From IMG/VR virus record IMGVR_UViG_3300046523_000170: 64,000 nucleotides of DNA. One strand, given 5' to 3'. The notes beneath the pieces were generated by a model. It made no database searches. It worked only from the letters and a program-made list of their open reading frames with translations, and had not been told where the DNA came from. Shown one piece after another: positions 11,072 to 26,396 of this stretch. A program made the translations under genes and the position numbers. Each line of letters starts with the position of its first letter. Within the stretch, counting starts at the first letter, position 1. The DNA comes from an uncultured virus (IMG/VR IMGVR_UViG_3300046523_000170). Lineage: Duplodnaviria > Heunggongvirae > Uroviricota > Caudoviricetes.

Positions 11072-11800
11072 TCATTCATTGGATTCAGACTCGACTTCGA
11101 CGAATTCGCCGGCAGCGCCCAGCCGGTACCACACGCCGGCCTTGATGCCGTTCTCACCGACCTTGCTCGCACGGATATGGAGCAGGTTGTAGTCGTCGTC
11201 GCGGTAGGCCAAAACGATGGCGCCGGTTTCCCCAGCCATGGCGCGACCGTCATAGCCGCATGCCATTGCGACAGAATGTTTTCCGGTGGCCGACGCTGCA
11301 CCGCGGGTGCCGGTGGCCGACGCTGCACCGCTGTAGCCGGTGGCCGACGCTGCACCGCGGGTGCCGGTGGCCGACGCTGCACCGCGATCTTTATCGGAGT
11401 AGGCTGGAGATTCTGGATCGATCGGCGCGCAGCGCTTCACGGTGTATTCGATTGCCGCCTTGATCAGGCCCGGCAGGGAGATCTCTGCCTTAACCGTCAG
11501 GGTCTTGCTTGCGACCTTCGTGTCGTCGCTGTGGCGGCTCAGCTGGCCCGACTGCTCAACCACGGCAAAGCGATTACCGGCCGGCGGATAGTAGTTGAAG
11601 ACATCCAGCGGATATTCGCAGGCGTGGAAGCCGGACTCGCAGGCTTGGACATCGCCGTCGTGGGTGAACGTCTCGCCCAGCTTGTACTGGAAGCCGCGGC
11701 ATTTCCAGTTCTCGTCGAAGCCCTTGAACGAGGTGATCGCCTCCTGCTGCGCCGCTTGATCGTTGTCTTCCATCTGCATCCCCTGTTGTGTGGTGTTCAT
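11072..11800 (-). CDS. Phage protein with GAASATG repeats
   Basis: KGFDENWKCRGFQY..CESGFHACEYPLDVFNYY N-terminus, GENGIKAGVWYRL C-terminus. Confidence 0.85.
   Translation of the reverse strand: MNTTQQGMQMEDNDQAAQQEAITSFKGFDENWKCRGFQYKLGETFTHDGDVQACESGFHACEYPLDVFNYYPPAGNRFAVVEQSGQLSRHSDDTKVASKTLTVKAEISLPGLIKAAIEYTVKRCAPIDPESPAYSDKDRGAASATGTRGAASATGYSGAASATGTRGAASATGKHSVAMACGYDGRAMAGETGAIVLAYRDDDYNLLHIRASKVGENGIKAGVWYRLGAAGEFVEVESESNE
11283..11386. repeat. 27-bp coding tandem repeat, about 4 copies
   Basis: CCGGTGGCCGACGCTGCACCGC at 11283, 11310, 11337, 11364. Confidence 0.92.
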
Positions 11801-11995: not shown

Positions 11996-12047
11996 ACTTT
12001 ACCCCTAGGTAAAATCAAACGCAAGTAAAAAATATACCCGCAGGTAA
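11996..12047 (-). promoter_or_regulatory. PL promoter with two operator sites (OL)
   Basis: Minus strand TTGCGT-N17-TAAAGT; 14-bp near palindromes TTACCCCTAGGTAA (11999) and ATACCCGCAGGTAA (12034). Confidence 0.75.
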
Positions 12048-12062
12048 AAATATGTGTAGAAT

Positions 12063-12445
12063 CGCTCCATCGGCCGAGTTCGGCTGATTGCAAGCCTGGA
12101 GCAGGGAGGGGAACTCCGACGCGAACGGCCTAGAGATCGATCGAGCTGACGACATCAGCCGCTTCACTCGTCGGGAACCGCCGGCAGGGGTGAGGGGACA
12201 GGCGTACTGTGGGGATGGTCTGAGATACGCACGCGGGCAGCGAAGTTAGCACCTGTGGACCGGAAAGGCTGACGAGTCGTAGATACGGCGTACCGATATC
12301 CACGTAAAGACCCAGCATAGGAAAGCTGAGTCTTCGTCCCAGCCCCCGATTACCTCAAAACCAAAACGGGGTTGAAGTTAGAGGATGAATTCATAACTGC
12401 AGTAAGCAGTACCTCTAGCAGATGGTATTAGTACCTATAGAGGAT
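12063..12445 (+). ncRNA. Candidate large structured ncRNA
   Basis: No credible ORF; at least eight nested or long-range helices; TAGAAT at 12057-12062 just upstream. Confidence 0.55.
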
Positions 12446-12467
12446 GAGAAAATAAAAAGGGCCGAGA

Positions 12468-12863
12468 ATGGCGCAAAAAATGACCCTGACGGCCTACCTC
12501 ACACAACGAGGCGTGAAAGCAAAGGCGCTGACCAAGGGTGAGGCTGAACTGCTGGGCATTCCGTACCCGCTGCGCGCCGGCTGGCCGCGGCGTCATGGCG
12601 CCATGGAGATCGAGGAGCCAATGCTGGCACAGCTGGTGGCGTGCGCGGAGACTGCGCGGCAAGCGTCAGAAGAGAAGGCGAGCCGCAGTCACGCCAAGAT
12701 CGGGCAAGCCAGGCCAGCCGGCACCAGTCTGCAGGTCCGATCGTCGACGCCATACGAGTTGACGGCCTTCCCTGGCTTCGTGGTGCGCCAGGCCCGGCGC
12801 TACCGATCGCGCAGCCCGGCACCATGGGCGCAAAAAAGCCCGTACGCGACGGGCATCTACTGA
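12468..12863 (+). CDS. Basic hypothetical protein downstream of the candidate ncRNA
   Basis: 131 aa, oriented against its neighbours; EAELLGIPYPLRAGW motif. Confidence 0.7.
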   Translation: MAQKMTLTAYLTQRGVKAKALTKGEAELLGIPYPLRAGWPRRHGAMEIEEPMLAQLVACAETARQASEEKASRSHAKIGQARPAGTSLQVRSSTPYELTAFPGFVVRQARRYRSRSPAPWAQKSPYATGIY

Positions 12864-14936: not shown

Positions 14937-15686
14937 CTACAGCCGACCTGTCACGACGCGACCAGGCTGGTAGACCACGCGGCCGATGATTTTGAGCTCG
15001 CCGCTCTTTGCATTGATCGGGCCGAACTCCGGATTAATCGAATGCAGATACCACTGCCCGCCGCGGTGGAGCATTTGCTTGATGCACGCCTCACCATCGA
15101 ACGCTATCGCATACAGCTCACGATTGACCGCTCTGGTATCGCTGATGTCGGCGACGACGATGTCATCCTCGAAGAACATCGGCTCACCACTCCTGCCTTT
15201 AACTTGGAAGGCGCGGAGGTTCTGTGGATCACGCCGCAGCTGCGTGACTACATCCATGGGAATTTGCAGGTCATCGCCAAAAGTCTCATCGTGATCTGGT
15301 TCCAGTCTCATGACGCCGGCATGCAGCCGGACGTTCACGCGCTTGATTGCGACCGTATTGAGTTCCGACCCAATTCGGATGGGTCGGGCGCCTGGGAAAA
15401 GGGTGGAGATTGACGGTTGGTCAGTACGGCCCTCGGCGGGAGCCCCGCCAGCTGCGATGATCAGCTCGGGCGGGAGGCTGCACTTGGCAATTTTTGAGAT
15501 GCCCATGAGCTGCTTGAGGCTTGGGCTATGCCTGCAGTTCTCCCAGCCCGAAATATTGGCTTTGGTATGGCCGCGCTCCTCGCCAAGCTCGTCAGCTAGA
15601 AGTAGCCCAAGTCCTAGCTGGGAGAGCCCAGCAGCCTTCCGGGCCGAGCGAACCCAGTCAGCTAGTAATCGTTTCAAATCGTCCAT
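14937..15686 (-). CDS. XRE HTH + S24 peptidase (LexA/CI-type) regulator
   Basis: N-terminal HTH (NISGWEN), LHAG candidate cleavage site, VKGRSGEP Ser, CIKQ Lys, IIGRVV end. Confidence 0.88.
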   Translation of the reverse strand: MDDLKRLLADWVRSARKAAGLSQLGLGLLLADELGEERGHTKANISGWENCRHSPSLKQLMGISKIAKCSLPPELIIAAGGAPAEGRTDQPSISTLFPGARPIRIGSELNTVAIKRVNVRLHAGVMRLEPDHDETFGDDLQIPMDVVTQLRRDPQNLRAFQVKGRSGEPMFFEDDIVVADISDTRAVNRELYAIAFDGEACIKQMLHRGGQWYLHSINPEFGPINAKSGELKIIGRVVYQPGRVVTGRL

Positions 15687-15756
15687 GGCGGCAGTATAAG
15701 AAGGTCGCGCCCCAAAGTACAGAATTACTTGACCTTTGATCTTTCGCAAACTTATA

Positions 15757-15797: not shown

Positions 15798-16055
15798 CTA
15801 TCGGCGAGGGGTGATGGCGTCAATGATCTCTTGGACCATCTCCTGGGTGCGTCGTGTCTCGGCGATCATTTGAGCGTTTTGCTCGGCAAGGGTTGACAGC
15901 GAGACGCCGCCGGCCGCGGCAGTCAGGCGGTTAATAATTTCGACGTTCATGGAATGCCCGGCGCGGTCTGCTGCTTCCAGGAGGTCTGCATGCAAATCGG
16001 CCGGGATGCGCATTGCGGTTTTTATGGCTGGCTTCTTCGGTGGCTTTTCTTTCAT
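15798..16055 (-). CDS. Arc/ribbon-helix-helix DNA-binding protein
   Basis: TAMRIPADLHADLLEAADRAGHSMNVEIINRL. Confidence 0.85.
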   Translation of the reverse strand: MKEKPPKKPAIKTAMRIPADLHADLLEAADRAGHSMNVEIINRLTAAAGGVSLSTLAEQNAQMIAETRRTQEMVQEIIDAITPRR

Positions 16056-16301
16056 GCGCGCGATTTTTGCGCGATTCCGAGGAAGAGTGTTGTAAGTGCC
16101 ATACAACCTATGGCACTTTATCAGAGCGAAGTCGGAATAGTTACCTTTTGTAACTACAAAAAAGCAGCCAAGCCCTAGCAAAATGTGATATTTGGTTAGT
16201 TTATGCAGGGCAAATAGGGCATCAAGACCGCTCTATTCAACGTATGTTGGAGTGCTACTGCGTCCTATATTGACGTATAGTATTTCCAAAGGGATACAAA
16301 A

Positions 16302-16514
16302 ATGGTAGACGATGCTGTTCCGGAGCGGGGAAATATGTCTGAAATTGACAATGCTGGTTTTCAGTTGACGGGGCAAGAGGTCCGTCTTATTCGCAATTAC
16401 CGCGCAATGGAGGGCATTGCGCAGCAGACGTTTGTGGATATTTCGGAAGAGTTCGCTCTATCTCTTCCGGCGTCAAGGCACGGCGAGATGCCGGGAACTA
16501 CTTCACCGGGCTAG
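16302..16514 (+). CDS. Small protein resembling the repressor C-terminal domain
   Basis: LTGQEVRLIRNYRAM; convergent and overlapping stop with the repressor. Confidence 0.65.
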   Translation: MVDDAVPERGNMSEIDNAGFQLTGQEVRLIRNYRAMEGIAQQTFVDISEEFALSLPASRHGEMPGTTSPG

Positions 16515-16957
16515 TCATCCGCCTTCGGAACGGCCACTGCAGCATTGCGGATCATAGTTTTCCCTTTCTCAGTAGCGCGTCGGTAAAGGTCGAGAATTTC
16601 CTTCTCGGAAGCGTCTAGTCTATCGAGCGAGGTTTCCGGCGACACTTTCGTTCGCGCCTGGCTCTTGGTTGGCGCGCCAATGGCAGGAGCTTCCGCAGCC
16701 GACGTCTCATCCGCTAACACCACATCGCCGGTCGGCTCTTTGTCCAAGCTGCCACGTTTGAGCGAAAGGGCATCTTCGATGATGTCCCTCATGTCCTCGC
16801 CGATCCGCTTCTTTCCGTCCTTCCCCTCTGGGTAAAGCATCCTCGAAACATAAGAGGGTGACCGCTCTATCAAGTCGGCGAGAGTAGCCGCCCTGCCGTC
16901 GCAATGGCTGCGAAGCAGCGCCTGCAAGTTCCGCCTTCGAATCTCATATTTGTCCAT
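16511..16957 (-). CDS. CI-like prophage repressor without peptidase domain
   Basis: YEIRRRNL..ATLADLIERSPSYVSRML..KRIGE HTH; divergent from cro. Confidence 0.85.
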   Translation of the reverse strand: MDKYEIRRRNLQALLRSHCDGRAATLADLIERSPSYVSRMLYPEGKDGKKRIGEDMRDIIEDALSLKRGSLDKEPTGDVVLADETSAAEAPAIGAPTKSQARTKVSPETSLDRLDASEKEILDLYRRATEKGKTMIRNAAVAVPKADD

Positions 16958-16976
16958 GCGGCATTCAAGCAGCAAT

Positions 16977-17033
16977 TTACTTTCGGGTAAATGACCCATA
17001 GGTATTGACTCTCACTTTACCTGCGGGTAAATT
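16977..17033 (+). promoter_or_regulatory. OR operators (three sites) and PR promoter
   Basis: TTACTTTCGGGTAA, TGACCCATAGGTAT, TTACCTGCGGGTAA; TTGACT-N17-TAAATT. Confidence 0.8.
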
Positions 17034-17039
17034 ACGTCT

Positions 17040-17327
17040 ATGGACAAATTGCTTAAGTACCTCAACTCCTTGGAGAAGGAGGCGCGAGCGGCGTACGCGG
17101 CGGCTTGTGGCACGACCGAGGGATACCTCCGAAAGGCGGTCAGCCGGGACCAGAAGTTCAACGCTGAGCTCTGCATCTCGTTGGAGCGTGAGTCAGGCGG
17201 TGCAGTTCGCTGCGAAGACCTGCTGCCAGATGCTGACTGGGCGTACATCCGCTCGCAGGCGGTGGTCGCAAGCATGTCCCGCAGGTCGACCGACCCGAAG
17301 CCATTGTTGGCCGGCCCCAGTAACTGA
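17040..17327 (+). CDS. Cro/YdaS-like regulator
   Basis: YAAACGTTEGYLRK..LERESGGAVRCEDLLPDADW. Confidence 0.88.
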   Translation: MDKLLKYLNSLEKEARAAYAAACGTTEGYLRKAVSRDQKFNAELCISLERESGGAVRCEDLLPDADWAYIRSQAVVASMSRRSTDPKPLLAGPSN

Positions 17328-17493
17328 GTTGCTCGTCGCGCTCCGCAGTAGATCGTAACTGCGGCGCCGCCAACCTGCAGCGGGACGGCGACCAGATCGC
17401 AGTTCATCAGTACGAAGGCAGCGTTAGACATTTGGACCCCGGTTGTTGTTCTCAGTAAGTGTTGCCAGATTAACTTTCCAACTAGAAAAAGTC

Positions 17494-24437: not shown

Positions 24438-25151
24438 ATGGGAAGCATGCTGACACTGCAAACCATCGGCACCGCCGGTGCCACGATGTCCAGCCGCGAG
24501 ATTGCTGATTTGACCGGCAGCTCGCACGACAACGTTATGAAAACGGTACGTCGCCTTATAGCCGAGGGGGTCGTTTCTGGGAACGAGACCCCGTATCAGC
24601 ATCCGCAGAATGGGCAGGCCTATAACGAGTTCCTGCTGACGTTCCGCGACACGATGGTGGTCGTCTCCGGCTACAACGCCGAGCTGCGCGCGCGAATTAT
24701 CGACCGTTGGCAGGAGCTGGAGGGACGCACTCCGGCGCCGGCCGTGTTGTCCCGAATGCAGATACTCGAGATGGCGATGCAATCCGAGCGTGAGCGTGTT
24801 GCGCTTGCCGAGCAGGTAGAAGCGGCAAAGCCGGCGGTGGAGTTCGTCGGCCGCTACGTCGAGTCTACCGGCCTCATGACGTTCCGCCAGGTTGCGAAGC
24901 TCCTGAAGGTCAAAGAGCCGGAGTTTCGCCAGTTCCTGCACTCGCAGAAGATCATGTACCCGCTGAACGGCGAGTGGACGGCGCACGCCAGCCACATCGA
25001 GGCAGGCCGGTTTGAGATGCGAGCCGGCACCGCGCAGAGCAATGGCCATGCCTTCAATACAGCCAAGTTCACAGCCAAGGGCGTGGAGTGGGTCGCCGGC
25101 GAGCTGGCAAGGTGGCAGCTGAAGCAACGCGGGGAGGCCGGCCATGTGTGA
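24438..25151 (+). CDS. Rha-domain / KilAC antirepressor
   Basis: TMSSREIADLTG..HDNV..RARIIDRWQELE; AKPAVEFV..FRQVAKLL..KFTAKGVEW. Confidence 0.9.
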   Translation: MGSMLTLQTIGTAGATMSSREIADLTGSSHDNVMKTVRRLIAEGVVSGNETPYQHPQNGQAYNEFLLTFRDTMVVVSGYNAELRARIIDRWQELEGRTPAPAVLSRMQILEMAMQSERERVALAEQVEAAKPAVEFVGRYVESTGLMTFRQVAKLLKVKEPEFRQFLHSQKIMYPLNGEWTAHASHIEAGRFEMRAGTAQSNGHAFNTAKFTAKGVEWVAGELARWQLKQRGEAGHV

Positions 25152-25665
25152 CCTCTCGACACTCAATGCATTGCGCGAGCAAGCGCAGTCGGCGCCCGAA
25201 GTGACGGTCAAGTCCGAGATCCTGCTAAAACTGCTAGATCCTGTGATGGTCGTCACAATTGATGCGCCACAGAAGCGCGCTAAACGCCAGAAAGCGCCTG
25301 TCGATCCGGCTGACAAGATCTGCGCCGAATGGCTGCTTAAGGTTCGGGACCGCACGGCGCCGAAGATGAAGCGGCCAAACACCGACGCATGGTGCAACGA
25401 CATACGGATCATGCGGGAACAGGACGGGCGCGAGCGAAAGGAAATCTGCGAACTGTTCCTGTGGGCTCACAAGGATCCGTTCTGGTGCACCAACATCCTG
25501 TGCCCGAAAACCCTGCGTGAGCAATGGGACCGACTCACCTTGTTACGCGACCAAGCGCCCAAGGCCGCGAGGCGTGAGAGTGTCGAGGATCGGAATGCAC
25601 GGTTGCAGGCGGAGTTCTTGGGCGATCGGCCGGCTCAGGCATCGACCTACCTGCTGGAGGCATGA
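25144..25665 (+). CDS. Replication initiator-like protein (C-terminal domain only)
   Basis: WCNDIRIMREQDGR..FWCTNILCPKTLREQWDRL resembles the lambda O-type C-terminus. Confidence 0.75.
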   Translation: MCDLSTLNALREQAQSAPEVTVKSEILLKLLDPVMVVTIDAPQKRAKRQKAPVDPADKICAEWLLKVRDRTAPKMKRPNTDAWCNDIRIMREQDGRERKEICELFLWAHKDPFWCTNILCPKTLREQWDRLTLLRDQAPKAARRESVEDRNARLQAEFLGDRPAQASTYLLEA

Positions 25666-26396
25666 TGGAAGACAGTCAAAAGGCCGCTTTCCTAGAGCGC
25701 CTCACTGAAATCATGCTCGCCTACGGGAAGCCACTGCACGACAGGGCAGTGCTTGACGCCTGGTGGCGGCAGCTGCAGGAGTTCCCGCTCCGAATCGTCG
25801 CTTTGGCGTTTAGCACCTACCGAGAGGAAAACGACACCTTCGCCCCGGTCCCGAACAGCATCTACAAGCGCTGCCTACTGATGGACGGCCGGCCTGGCGC
25901 AGAAGAGGCTTGGGCCATCGCGCTGCGCAGCACTGACGAGGTAGATACGGTCGTGTGGACCCAGGAGATTGCCGCTGCCTTCTCGATCTGCAAGCCAGTA
26001 TTGGACTCAAGCGGGGCTATCAGCGCCCGCAAGCCGTTCCTTGAGGCCTATACGCGTCTCGTAACGGAGGCGCGAGCGATCCGACGCCCGGCAGAGTGGA
26101 TTGCTTCCCTCGGATGGGATCCGGCGCAGCAGGCTCGGGCGATTAAGGCGGCTGCCGCGGCCGGCCAACTAACGGGGTCTGCTGCAACAGTGCTTCTTGA
26201 AGGCCCTGCGGGCGACCCGACGCCCGACGACTCCGCGCAAGCCCAGCTCTCCAAAATCAAGCAAATGCTCAAGGCTATGGAAGGCGAGCGCGAACTGCGC
26301 GCCTTGGCGGACCTCGAGCGCCAGGACCAAGCCGATCGGCTCTACAGGATCCGGACTCAGCAGATGGTCAATCAATACCAGCCGAGGGCCGCATGA
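25662..26396 (+). CDS. Putative helicase loader/inhibitor (P-position gene)
   Basis: FAPVP..DGRPGAEEAWA..TVVWTQEIAAA; follows the O-like gene. Confidence 0.6.
   Translation: MMEDSQKAAFLERLTEIMLAYGKPLHDRAVLDAWWRQLQEFPLRIVALAFSTYREENDTFAPVPNSIYKRCLLMDGRPGAEEAWAIALRSTDEVDTVVWTQEIAAAFSICKPVLDSSGAISARKPFLEAYTRLVTEARAIRRPAEWIASLGWDPAQQARAIKAAAAAGQLTGSAATVLLEGPAGDPTPDDSAQAQLSKIKQMLKAMEGERELRALADLERQDQADRLYRIRTQQMVNQYQPRAA

Follow-up and report, generated by a model that had tools for sequence, protein, structure and literature searches.

The DNA analysed here is a stretch of 64,000 nucleotides from an uncultured virus of the Caudoviricetes (IMG/VR record IMGVR_UViG_3300046523_000170), referred to below as the window. 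It carries an RNA of a known family, RF02932 (Betaproteobacteria-1), that probably has some part in the initiation of replication. The reading that we favour, with somewhat better than even confidence, is a repressor-gated R-loop origin resembling that of ColE1 RNA II, for which no DNA-recognising initiator domain would be needed.

The control region and its operators

The whole window follows the plan of a lambdoid prophage, with an integrase gene (295-1353) adjoining a tRNA, cII at 17443 and, farther along, terminase and tail genes. On the minus strand, a CI-like gene with an S24 peptidase (14937-15749) and the gene of a 162-aa regulator beside cro (16511-16999) flank an Arc-like gene (15798-16181). 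The stretch flagged in the initial annotation lies immediately to the right of the leftward early promoter. The elements of control are the following:

11998-12013: left operator copy 1, TTTACCnnnnGGTAAA, of the same family as the cI/cro operators
12033-12048: left operator copy 2, of the TTTACCnnnnGGTAAA family, covering the -35 position of the rightward promoter
12057-12062, plus strand: putative -10 element of the rightward promoter, its place and TA(G/A)AAT sequence kept in 16 related loci with differing operators
16511-16999, minus strand: cI-like repressor, with right operators at 16976 and 17016, and cro at 17040-17327, plus strand

The operator copy that had been noticed at the -35 position thus belongs to one family with the copies at 11998, 16976 and 17016. 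Because the left operators match the cI/cro pair, the rightward promoter is probably repressed in the lysogen. The TAGAAT from which the annotation had started also held its place, being conserved as a TA(G/A)AAT-like element in the 16 related loci; a strict sigma-70 scan listed no plus-strand promoter for it (12057-12062). Judged by its operators and the position of its promoter, the RNA is repressor-linked, and its transcription from this point is predicted. A fifth operator-like copy, with two mismatches, occurs at 16821-16836 inside the 162-aa repressor gene. Elsewhere, a DUF7666 gene (11072-11800, minus strand) contains tandem 36-nt-scale repeats at 11260-11385 that give GAASATG peptide repeats. 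Among the matches listed, the closest relatives of the RNA are in Massilia and Rugamonas genomes, so the host of the prophage is probably of that group.

Identity and fold of the RNA

The initial annotation had described a structured RNA unit of about 390 nt that could not be assigned to a named family. The RNA is indeed structured, as confirmed by Rfam and by covariation, and it does have a name. Positions 12160-12277 match RF02932 over the whole model (1-120 of 120) with 84.4 bits (E 4e-14), above the gathering score of 49.4 bits. The only other Rfam match within the window is one tRNA; the scan returned no ribozyme family, no GOLLD, ROOL or OLE, and no RNA II/RNA I. Rfam lists RF02932 under the sRNA gene type, without function. 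The features of the RNA and its surroundings are:

12069-12088, plus strand: 5' leader hairpin, clade-specific, seven pairs, each with one- or two-sided changes
12095-12121, plus strand: variable spacer, matching the type B RNA (sister phages L305, L309 etc.) along the 5' strand of its first helix
12145-12159, plus strand: hairpin GCTGA/TCAGC, clade-specific, stem invariant and loop variable, in 16 of 16 loci
12160-12277, plus strand: RNA core, RF02932, with P1 (12164-67/12190-93), pk1 (12184-87/12207-10), P2 (12202-06/12226-30), pk2 (12217-20/12258-62), P3 (12233-38/12251-56) and P4 (pk3; 12245-50/12268-73)
12275-12350, plus strand: 3' extension, with P5 (12278-12304) and P6 (12307-12334), without counterpart in the Rfam model
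~12275-12296 and ~12329-12350, plus strand: inner repeat copy X and 3' repeat copy Y
12350-12467: AT-rich tract, candidate unwinding region, 60% A+T against 40% for the window
12408-12436: a pair of AGTACCT boxes at a distance of 22 nt, possible binding sites for a protein, kept in 15 of the 16 related loci while the spacer varies
12468-12863, plus strand: 131-aa basic protein, with a small helical N-domain, a long helix and a disordered tail

Pattern scans yielded at least 211 loci, namely 36 plus at least 120 viral and 55 genomic ones. Among the 211 listed, 193 had the anchor motif and 175 were distinct, falling into 86 clusters at 82% identity. The alignment comprised 78 of the 86 clusters, the eight omitted having long insertions or poor 3' parts. 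In this 78-sequence alignment, mutual information gave six helices, three of them pseudoknots. Conserved helices with three pseudoknots are also what we take RF02932 to consist of. Over the 33 named pairs, 87.0% of the cells were paired, against 65.9% after shuffling and 30-45% with the partners slid, and 25 of the 33 pairs showed two-sided changes among the 78 homologs. The core further displays an exchange between U.G (60 of the 78 homologs) and C.A (18), and GNRA-like linkers.

The RNA is larger than catalogued. A 3' extension of about 75 nt, reaching to ~12350, is absent from the RF02932 model; its mean folding z is -2.3 over 85 homologs, against -0.2 for the stretch that follows, and P6 forms in 80 of the 85. 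The conserved unit thereby comes to ~190-205 nt, and the proposed 390-nt unit is not supported. Conservation of the leader (12063-12159), and of what trails beyond 12350, is confined to a 16-member clade. The spacer at 12095-12121, ~25 nt of which are deleted in L023 and L028, is probably a relic of a type B RNA, to judge from the match noted above.

Every string named in the initial annotation is present at its place, and the helices built from them fared unequally. Compensatory changes support TCGGCCGA/TCGGCTGA; GCTGA/TCAGC holds with an invariant stem; GCGTA/TACGC, CGCGGG/CCTGTG and AAGAC.CAGC/GCTG.GTCTT are likewise supported, and CGG-CGTA-CCG is so by invariance. The long-range helix 12187-12199/12336-12346 fails, with 39.7% of cells paired over the 78 homologs against 44.9% when slid by three columns. 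GCTCCA/TGGAGC, CCGACG/CGTCGG, CCCCG/CGGGG, ACTGC/GCAGT and CCTCTA/TAGAGG are missing from the consensus structure of the clade, while the GC-GAAGTTA-GC "loop" and CC-GGAAA-GG turn out to be strands of pseudoknots. Comparison with shuffled energies, a check suggested at the outset, gave an unremarkable z of -1.86 for 12057-12470 (core -0.4 to -0.6, extension -2.6). This is what one would expect of a fold whose main helices are pseudoknots, and single-sequence folding was set aside as an uninformative test of this RNA.

The Betaproteobacteria-1 motif is reportedly credited to a survey of 224 motifs. Its name does not occur in the accessible part of the main text of PMC5737381, and nothing relevant was found in PMC3488243. 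In the openly accessible literature searched, no paper was found that assigns a function to this RNA, and nothing specific was found on phage RNA origins and truncated initiators.

The 131-aa protein

The basic ORF downstream is real, as had been supposed, and belongs to a family of 64 proteins at E<=0.001, itself included. It has no Pfam or PHROG family and no named Atlas cluster above the bar, and its structural model (pLDDT 65) has no viral fold match at E<=0.001; its start presumably resembles that of MerR/excisionase-like proteins. It follows the RNA in 18 of the 175 distinct loci listed (5 of the 86 clusters). Conversely, among the 29 phage loci of the protein, 11 carry a Betaproteobacteria-1 RNA, 12 a different RNA and 6 neither. 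Hence, of the RNA-protein unit first proposed, the repressor-linked RNA stands and the general partnership does not: the protein appears to be an optional accessory limited to one clade and does not qualify as the partner that defines the RNA.

These counts also bear on the idea of a self-cleaving or self-processing ribozyme, or of an RNA antitoxin for this protein. A compact multi-pseudoknot fold with an invariant core would suit it, but no Rfam ribozyme family is matched, and the protein accompanies the RNA at too few loci (18 of 175 listed), with 6 of its 29 own loci lacking either RNA type, for us to consider it anything but very improbable. Self-processing could nevertheless be a step of the origin model. 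Among the four options originally listed (ribozyme-like RNA, RNP, RNA antitoxin, RNA-primed origin), the RNA-primed origin is the best supported, and no evidence was found for an antitoxin or a ribozyme.

Initiators without a DNA-recognising half

The origin reading draws mainly on the company that the RNA keeps. Two replication genes are relevant in the window:

25144-25665, plus strand: headless lambda-O-like initiator, 173 aa, matching 176-282 of 298 in phrog_391, i.e. the C-terminal domain only
25662-26396, plus strand: 244-aa gene in the P position, phrog_6028

In the first, a 35-aa helical start replaces the origin-binding domain; full-length DUF1376-type versions of this initiator occur in G097 and G163. 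The second would by its position be the helicase loader; a gene of the phrog_6028 type follows a full-length initiator in G144. The model of the headless O protein (pLDDT 73) found no PDB match by sequence or with Foldseek, and a link to DnaT-like single-strand binders is suggested by the DnaT-domain gene of one other phage. The candidate origin RNA lies 13 kb from the O gene here. The 35-aa start (25144-25250) is a helix-strand-helix element, LR..A....V......L..LLD, common to headless initiators of two C-domain families, and we take it to resemble the coiled-coil starts of Ead/Ea22.

Among 44 RNA-bearing viral records, 21 have an O-type gene with a phrog_270 C-domain and 4 one with a phrog_391 C-domain. 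All 25 match their profiles over the C-terminal part only (22 read by eye); the N-terminal part was matched by a single weak 85-aa frame. A set of 53 queries for initiator N-domains gave no hit in 296 RNA loci (2.2 Mb, with only 64 loci of at least 12 kb), and the same queries recovered 25 of 43 control loci, a sensitivity of ~58%. DUF1376 was found in none of the 44 records, with a positive control of 2/2; the HTH_36 search was a weak test, recovering 1 of 5 control records. Besides, a scan of 104 downstream proteins returned seven replication initiators, each by a C-terminal profile match only.

The best 80 of 587 C-domain loci comprised 35 headless initiators, 43 full-length ones and 2 that were cut off. 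In these, the RNA stood beside 11 of the 35 headless and none of the 43 full-length initiators (Fisher 5e-5), counts inflated by kinship since proteins next to the RNA had served to build the queries for headless genes and primases; after clustering, it accompanied 4 of 8 headless and 0 of 12 full-length clusters (p 0.014). As most full-length cases look gammaproteobacterial, the test was repeated in 151 genomes of one betaproteobacterial family. There, 12 full-length-initiator loci in 11 genomes, three of them judged on the N-terminal match alone, had no RNA in the 7-20 kb upstream, and both headless initiator genes lay 13-16 kb from an RNA. The exclusion is seen in both O families, which are unrelated to each other, with a gene that has nothing but a DnaT domain, and in the control within one host family. 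The RNA sits where the DNA-recognising half of the initiator is missing, and so probably marks the start of copying.

A second replication module and interchangeable RNAs

A second module lacks O and consists of a ParB-like protein, an SF2 helicase and a stand-alone Toprim primase (265-318 aa). Among the best 80 of 565 primase loci, 35 carry the RNA at 18-689 nt downstream of the primase stop, always on the same strand. Other uncatalogued RNAs fill the slot in 30 of the remaining 45, and of the 15 loci without any slot RNA, 3 have a full-length initiator gene instead. This arrangement is illustrated by the cultured phage AP1 (OM049504), which has ParB, helicase, primase and RNA in succession and, over the 18 kb read, no annotated O. 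Over 133 distinct RNA loci of at least 5 kb, a primase was found in 52, an O C-domain in 37, both in none and neither in 44, the last being a point against an origin role. One complete 40-kb phage (G004, locus L365) has cro, a hairpin, the RNA, small ORFs and a RusA-like gene, and no initiator, loader, helicase or primase was recognised in 20 kb; in this phage, replication from the RNA may rely on the host alone.

The slot beside headless initiators is shared in the same way, other conserved folded stretches occupying it in 8 of the 24 headless loci without a Betaproteobacteria-1 RNA. The type B RNA, ~225 nt and uncatalogued, occupies the Betaproteobacteria-1 slot before the 131-aa gene or after a primase (L303, L305-L310, L312, L314-L316, L318, L386, L391); in sister phages (12 loci) it is flanked by the leader and the downstream gene that the phage of the window has. 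Eleven type B records included eight with a headless O, one with a full-length initiator (G055) and two in which none was found. RNAs of types C/E, D and F stand after stand-alone primases or before headless initiators (L398-L459, e.g. L403, L411, L426; L229-L231, L237, L239, L240, L242, L294, L400, L432, L433). Rfam scans of 36 slot loci of types B-F gave no match. Types B and C have inner and 3' repeats of their own, seen by eye. In some type C copies there are inserted hairpins or tRNA-like elements (L436-L439, L453), a type-B phage contains an Rfam RT-15 RNA (L303:5487-5681, 170 bits), and in Thauera an ORF 1 kb after the RNA looks by eye like a plasmid replicase (L180:999-1958).

Some copies travel without replication genes, which speaks against the origin reading. 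In the 151 genomes, 6 of 9 RNA hits (5 of 8 distinct loci) were in islands in which no replication gene was found, and two distinct island copies adjoin tniQ-tniB of Tn7-like elements. In L482:4008-6187 and L486:13095-15979 the RNA faces tniQ (613 aa) and tniB, and G150 and G199 have the same sequence; transposon ends around the Tn7-like copies were not found. Such copies, the sRNA gene type given by Rfam and the type-B phage that keeps a full-length initiator would fit a portable RNA without a replicative role (a protein sponge, an anti-defence factor or a recombination aid), its link to headless genes reflecting shared ancestry. We consider this rather improbable, since 35 loci have the RNA at a fixed place and on a fixed strand behind the primase, unrelated RNAs substitute for it in the same slot, and the exclusion extends over the two unrelated O families, the DnaT-domain-only gene and the same-host control.

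Copies on a small Rep-less plasmid replicon were also sought and not found: no plasmid match covered more than 80% of the RNA query, and one partial hit lay on a 1.5-Mb replicon. The primase loci showed no switch of GC/AT skew at the RNA; GC skew flips at cI/cro, a point against an origin at the RNA.

Upstream of the RNA, a U-run occurs within 60 nt in 35 of 85 homologs, and hairpins were seen by eye. In L003, L004, L010, L030, L411 and L426 a promoter, a long hairpin complementary to the leader and a U-run precede the RNA. We assume these units to resemble c4/CI antisense-termination units, and they may control synthesis of the RNA. A U-run in this place, together with the promoter ahead of the RNA and the nin-type genes that it precedes in primase phages, is what a cis-acting antiterminator or leader of the HK022 put type would show, with RNA polymerase reading into the downstream genes. 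Here, however, a single gene (that of the 131-aa protein) separates the RNA from convergent genes, the Tn7-like and several other loci have no same-strand gene after it, and neither the repeat described below nor the headless initiators would be explained. This makes antitermination a distinctly improbable function.

A direct repeat that may pair with the template

Some alignment columns covary by identity and not by complementarity, and these define the inner copy X and the 3' copy Y, at a median spacing of 53 nt. Scored with its own Y, X reached 8.4 over 85 sequences; permuting the pairs 5000 times gave 5.5+-0.16 and never more than 6.1. The sequences of the repeat differ from phage to phage; in the phage of the window and its clade the shared box is 5-6 nt long (GC-nnn-CCGAT here), with X in the P5 stem, and predicted folds leave just 45% of X unpaired.

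Mismatches between the copies are skewed, with G in X and A in Y 74 times against 20 for the reverse (85 sequences). Such a skew is expected from base pairing between X and the template strand beneath Y, in which G.T wobbles are allowed. Without the first position the ratio is 48:19, with foreign (cross-sequence) pairs already at 1.4:1; an identity-only score had given 26:0, and the skew is weaker under later scoring. T/C and C/T mismatches show no skew (12:11). With RNA energies as a proxy, X pairs with the complement of Y better than the reverse in 53 of 67 cases. A+T rises by 15 points in the first 60 nt after Y, with no rise before the RNA (68 homologs), which is taken as a supporting point since intergenic DNA is often AT-rich. 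The repeat is significant and skewed across the family, and short and stem-bound in the phage of the window; its inner copy is a candidate for an upstream stretch of the RNA that pairs with the template.

The same observations have to be weighed against a folded element, either an RNA scaffold or single-stranded DNA opened by transcription, that would, in the manner of ssi/pas, receive primase, helicase or headless O as a landing site, with X and Y as two protein-binding sites. The context of initiators and primase slot fits this equally well, and TACCT-like words are enriched downstream of the RNA in homologs. The lack of a T/C skew would agree with it, as would the invariant CGAAG of the core, presumably a stable DNA mini-hairpin motif. 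Against it, the three pseudoknots, the GNRA-like linkers and the U.G to C.A exchange are RNA-like, the G/A skew has a direction, and the repeats vary among phages that have no DNA-binding domain to read them. We regard a landing site as unlikely.

Proposed mechanism

The R-loop origin that we prefer would operate as follows. Upon induction, the repressor would leave the left operators and the rightward promoter would make the RNA. The transcript would fold into the triple-pseudoknot core and P5/P6, as covariation indicates. X would then pair with the template under Y, ~50 nt further on, and from the hybrid transcript the R-loop would spread into the AT tract. The displaced strand would receive helicase and primase from the headless O and its P-like partner; in other phages, their own SF2 helicase with the stand-alone Toprim primase may do this loading. 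By analogy with ColE1 RNA II, cleavage by RNase H may in addition turn the RNA into a primer. The 131-aa protein would be an optional accessory, perhaps, speculatively, binding the AGTACCT boxes.

We advance a broader proposal tentatively, at a little short of even confidence. In a widespread group of betaproteobacterial phages, the DNA-binding half of the initiator would have been replaced by interchangeable RNAs (Betaproteobacteria-1 and at least three unrelated uncatalogued folds), whose inner guide recognises by base pairing the DNA beneath the 3' end of the same RNA and creates an opening for helicase and primase; this would amount to RNA-guided origin recognition, and the Tn7-like copies would then be the same DNA-opening module in another use. 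If the origin reading is correct, an orphan Rfam motif and several uncatalogued phage RNAs would gain a function at once, and the half initiators or lone primases without visible origin in many lake and soil phages would be explained. The 400-bp cassette and the cultured phage AP1 make the origin role directly testable.

Comparison with known systems

The RNA differs from the large ornate RNAs (GOLLD, ROOL, OLE) in its length of ~190-205 nt and in having no Rfam match to them, and from type III toxin-antitoxin systems or obligate RNPs in its inconstant association with the protein (18 of 175 loci listed; 11 of 29). T4 oriF and oriG are R-loop origins in which a promoter followed by an unwinding element gives a persistent RNA-DNA hybrid (PMC4412123). 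The available part of that source describes no conserved pseudoknotted RNA or internal guide for them, and T4 is a lytic myovirus with its own replisome.

The R-loop of ColE1 is held in place by base pairing between a run of rG in RNA II and a run of dC in the template (PMC4412123, PMC5043065). Compared with ColE1 as the available parts of these sources present it, the system described here likewise has no DNA-recognising initiator, has a folded transcript, an upstream stretch of which may pair with the template further on, and would use the displaced strand for helicase loading. It differs in its size (~190 nt against 550), in a mixed-sequence repeat ~53 nt apart, in phage-repressor control and in its headless O or helicase-primase partners; it has no sequence or Rfam relation to ColE1 and is not a member of that system. 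As for RNA I, no counterpart is shown, what lies upstream being the U-runs counted and the hairpins seen by eye. If the origin reading holds, the RNA-origin principle of ColE1 would extend to temperate phages, whose guide would be compact and reprogrammable.

The lambda origin has O iterons and an AT-rich region inside gene O and is activated by transcription from PR (PMC5043065). Set beside the accessible part of that account, the O protein here lacks the iteron-binding N-domain and the origin-bearing linker, while the lambdoid plan, repressor-gated transcription as predicted, the C-terminal domain of O and the gene in the P position are all kept.
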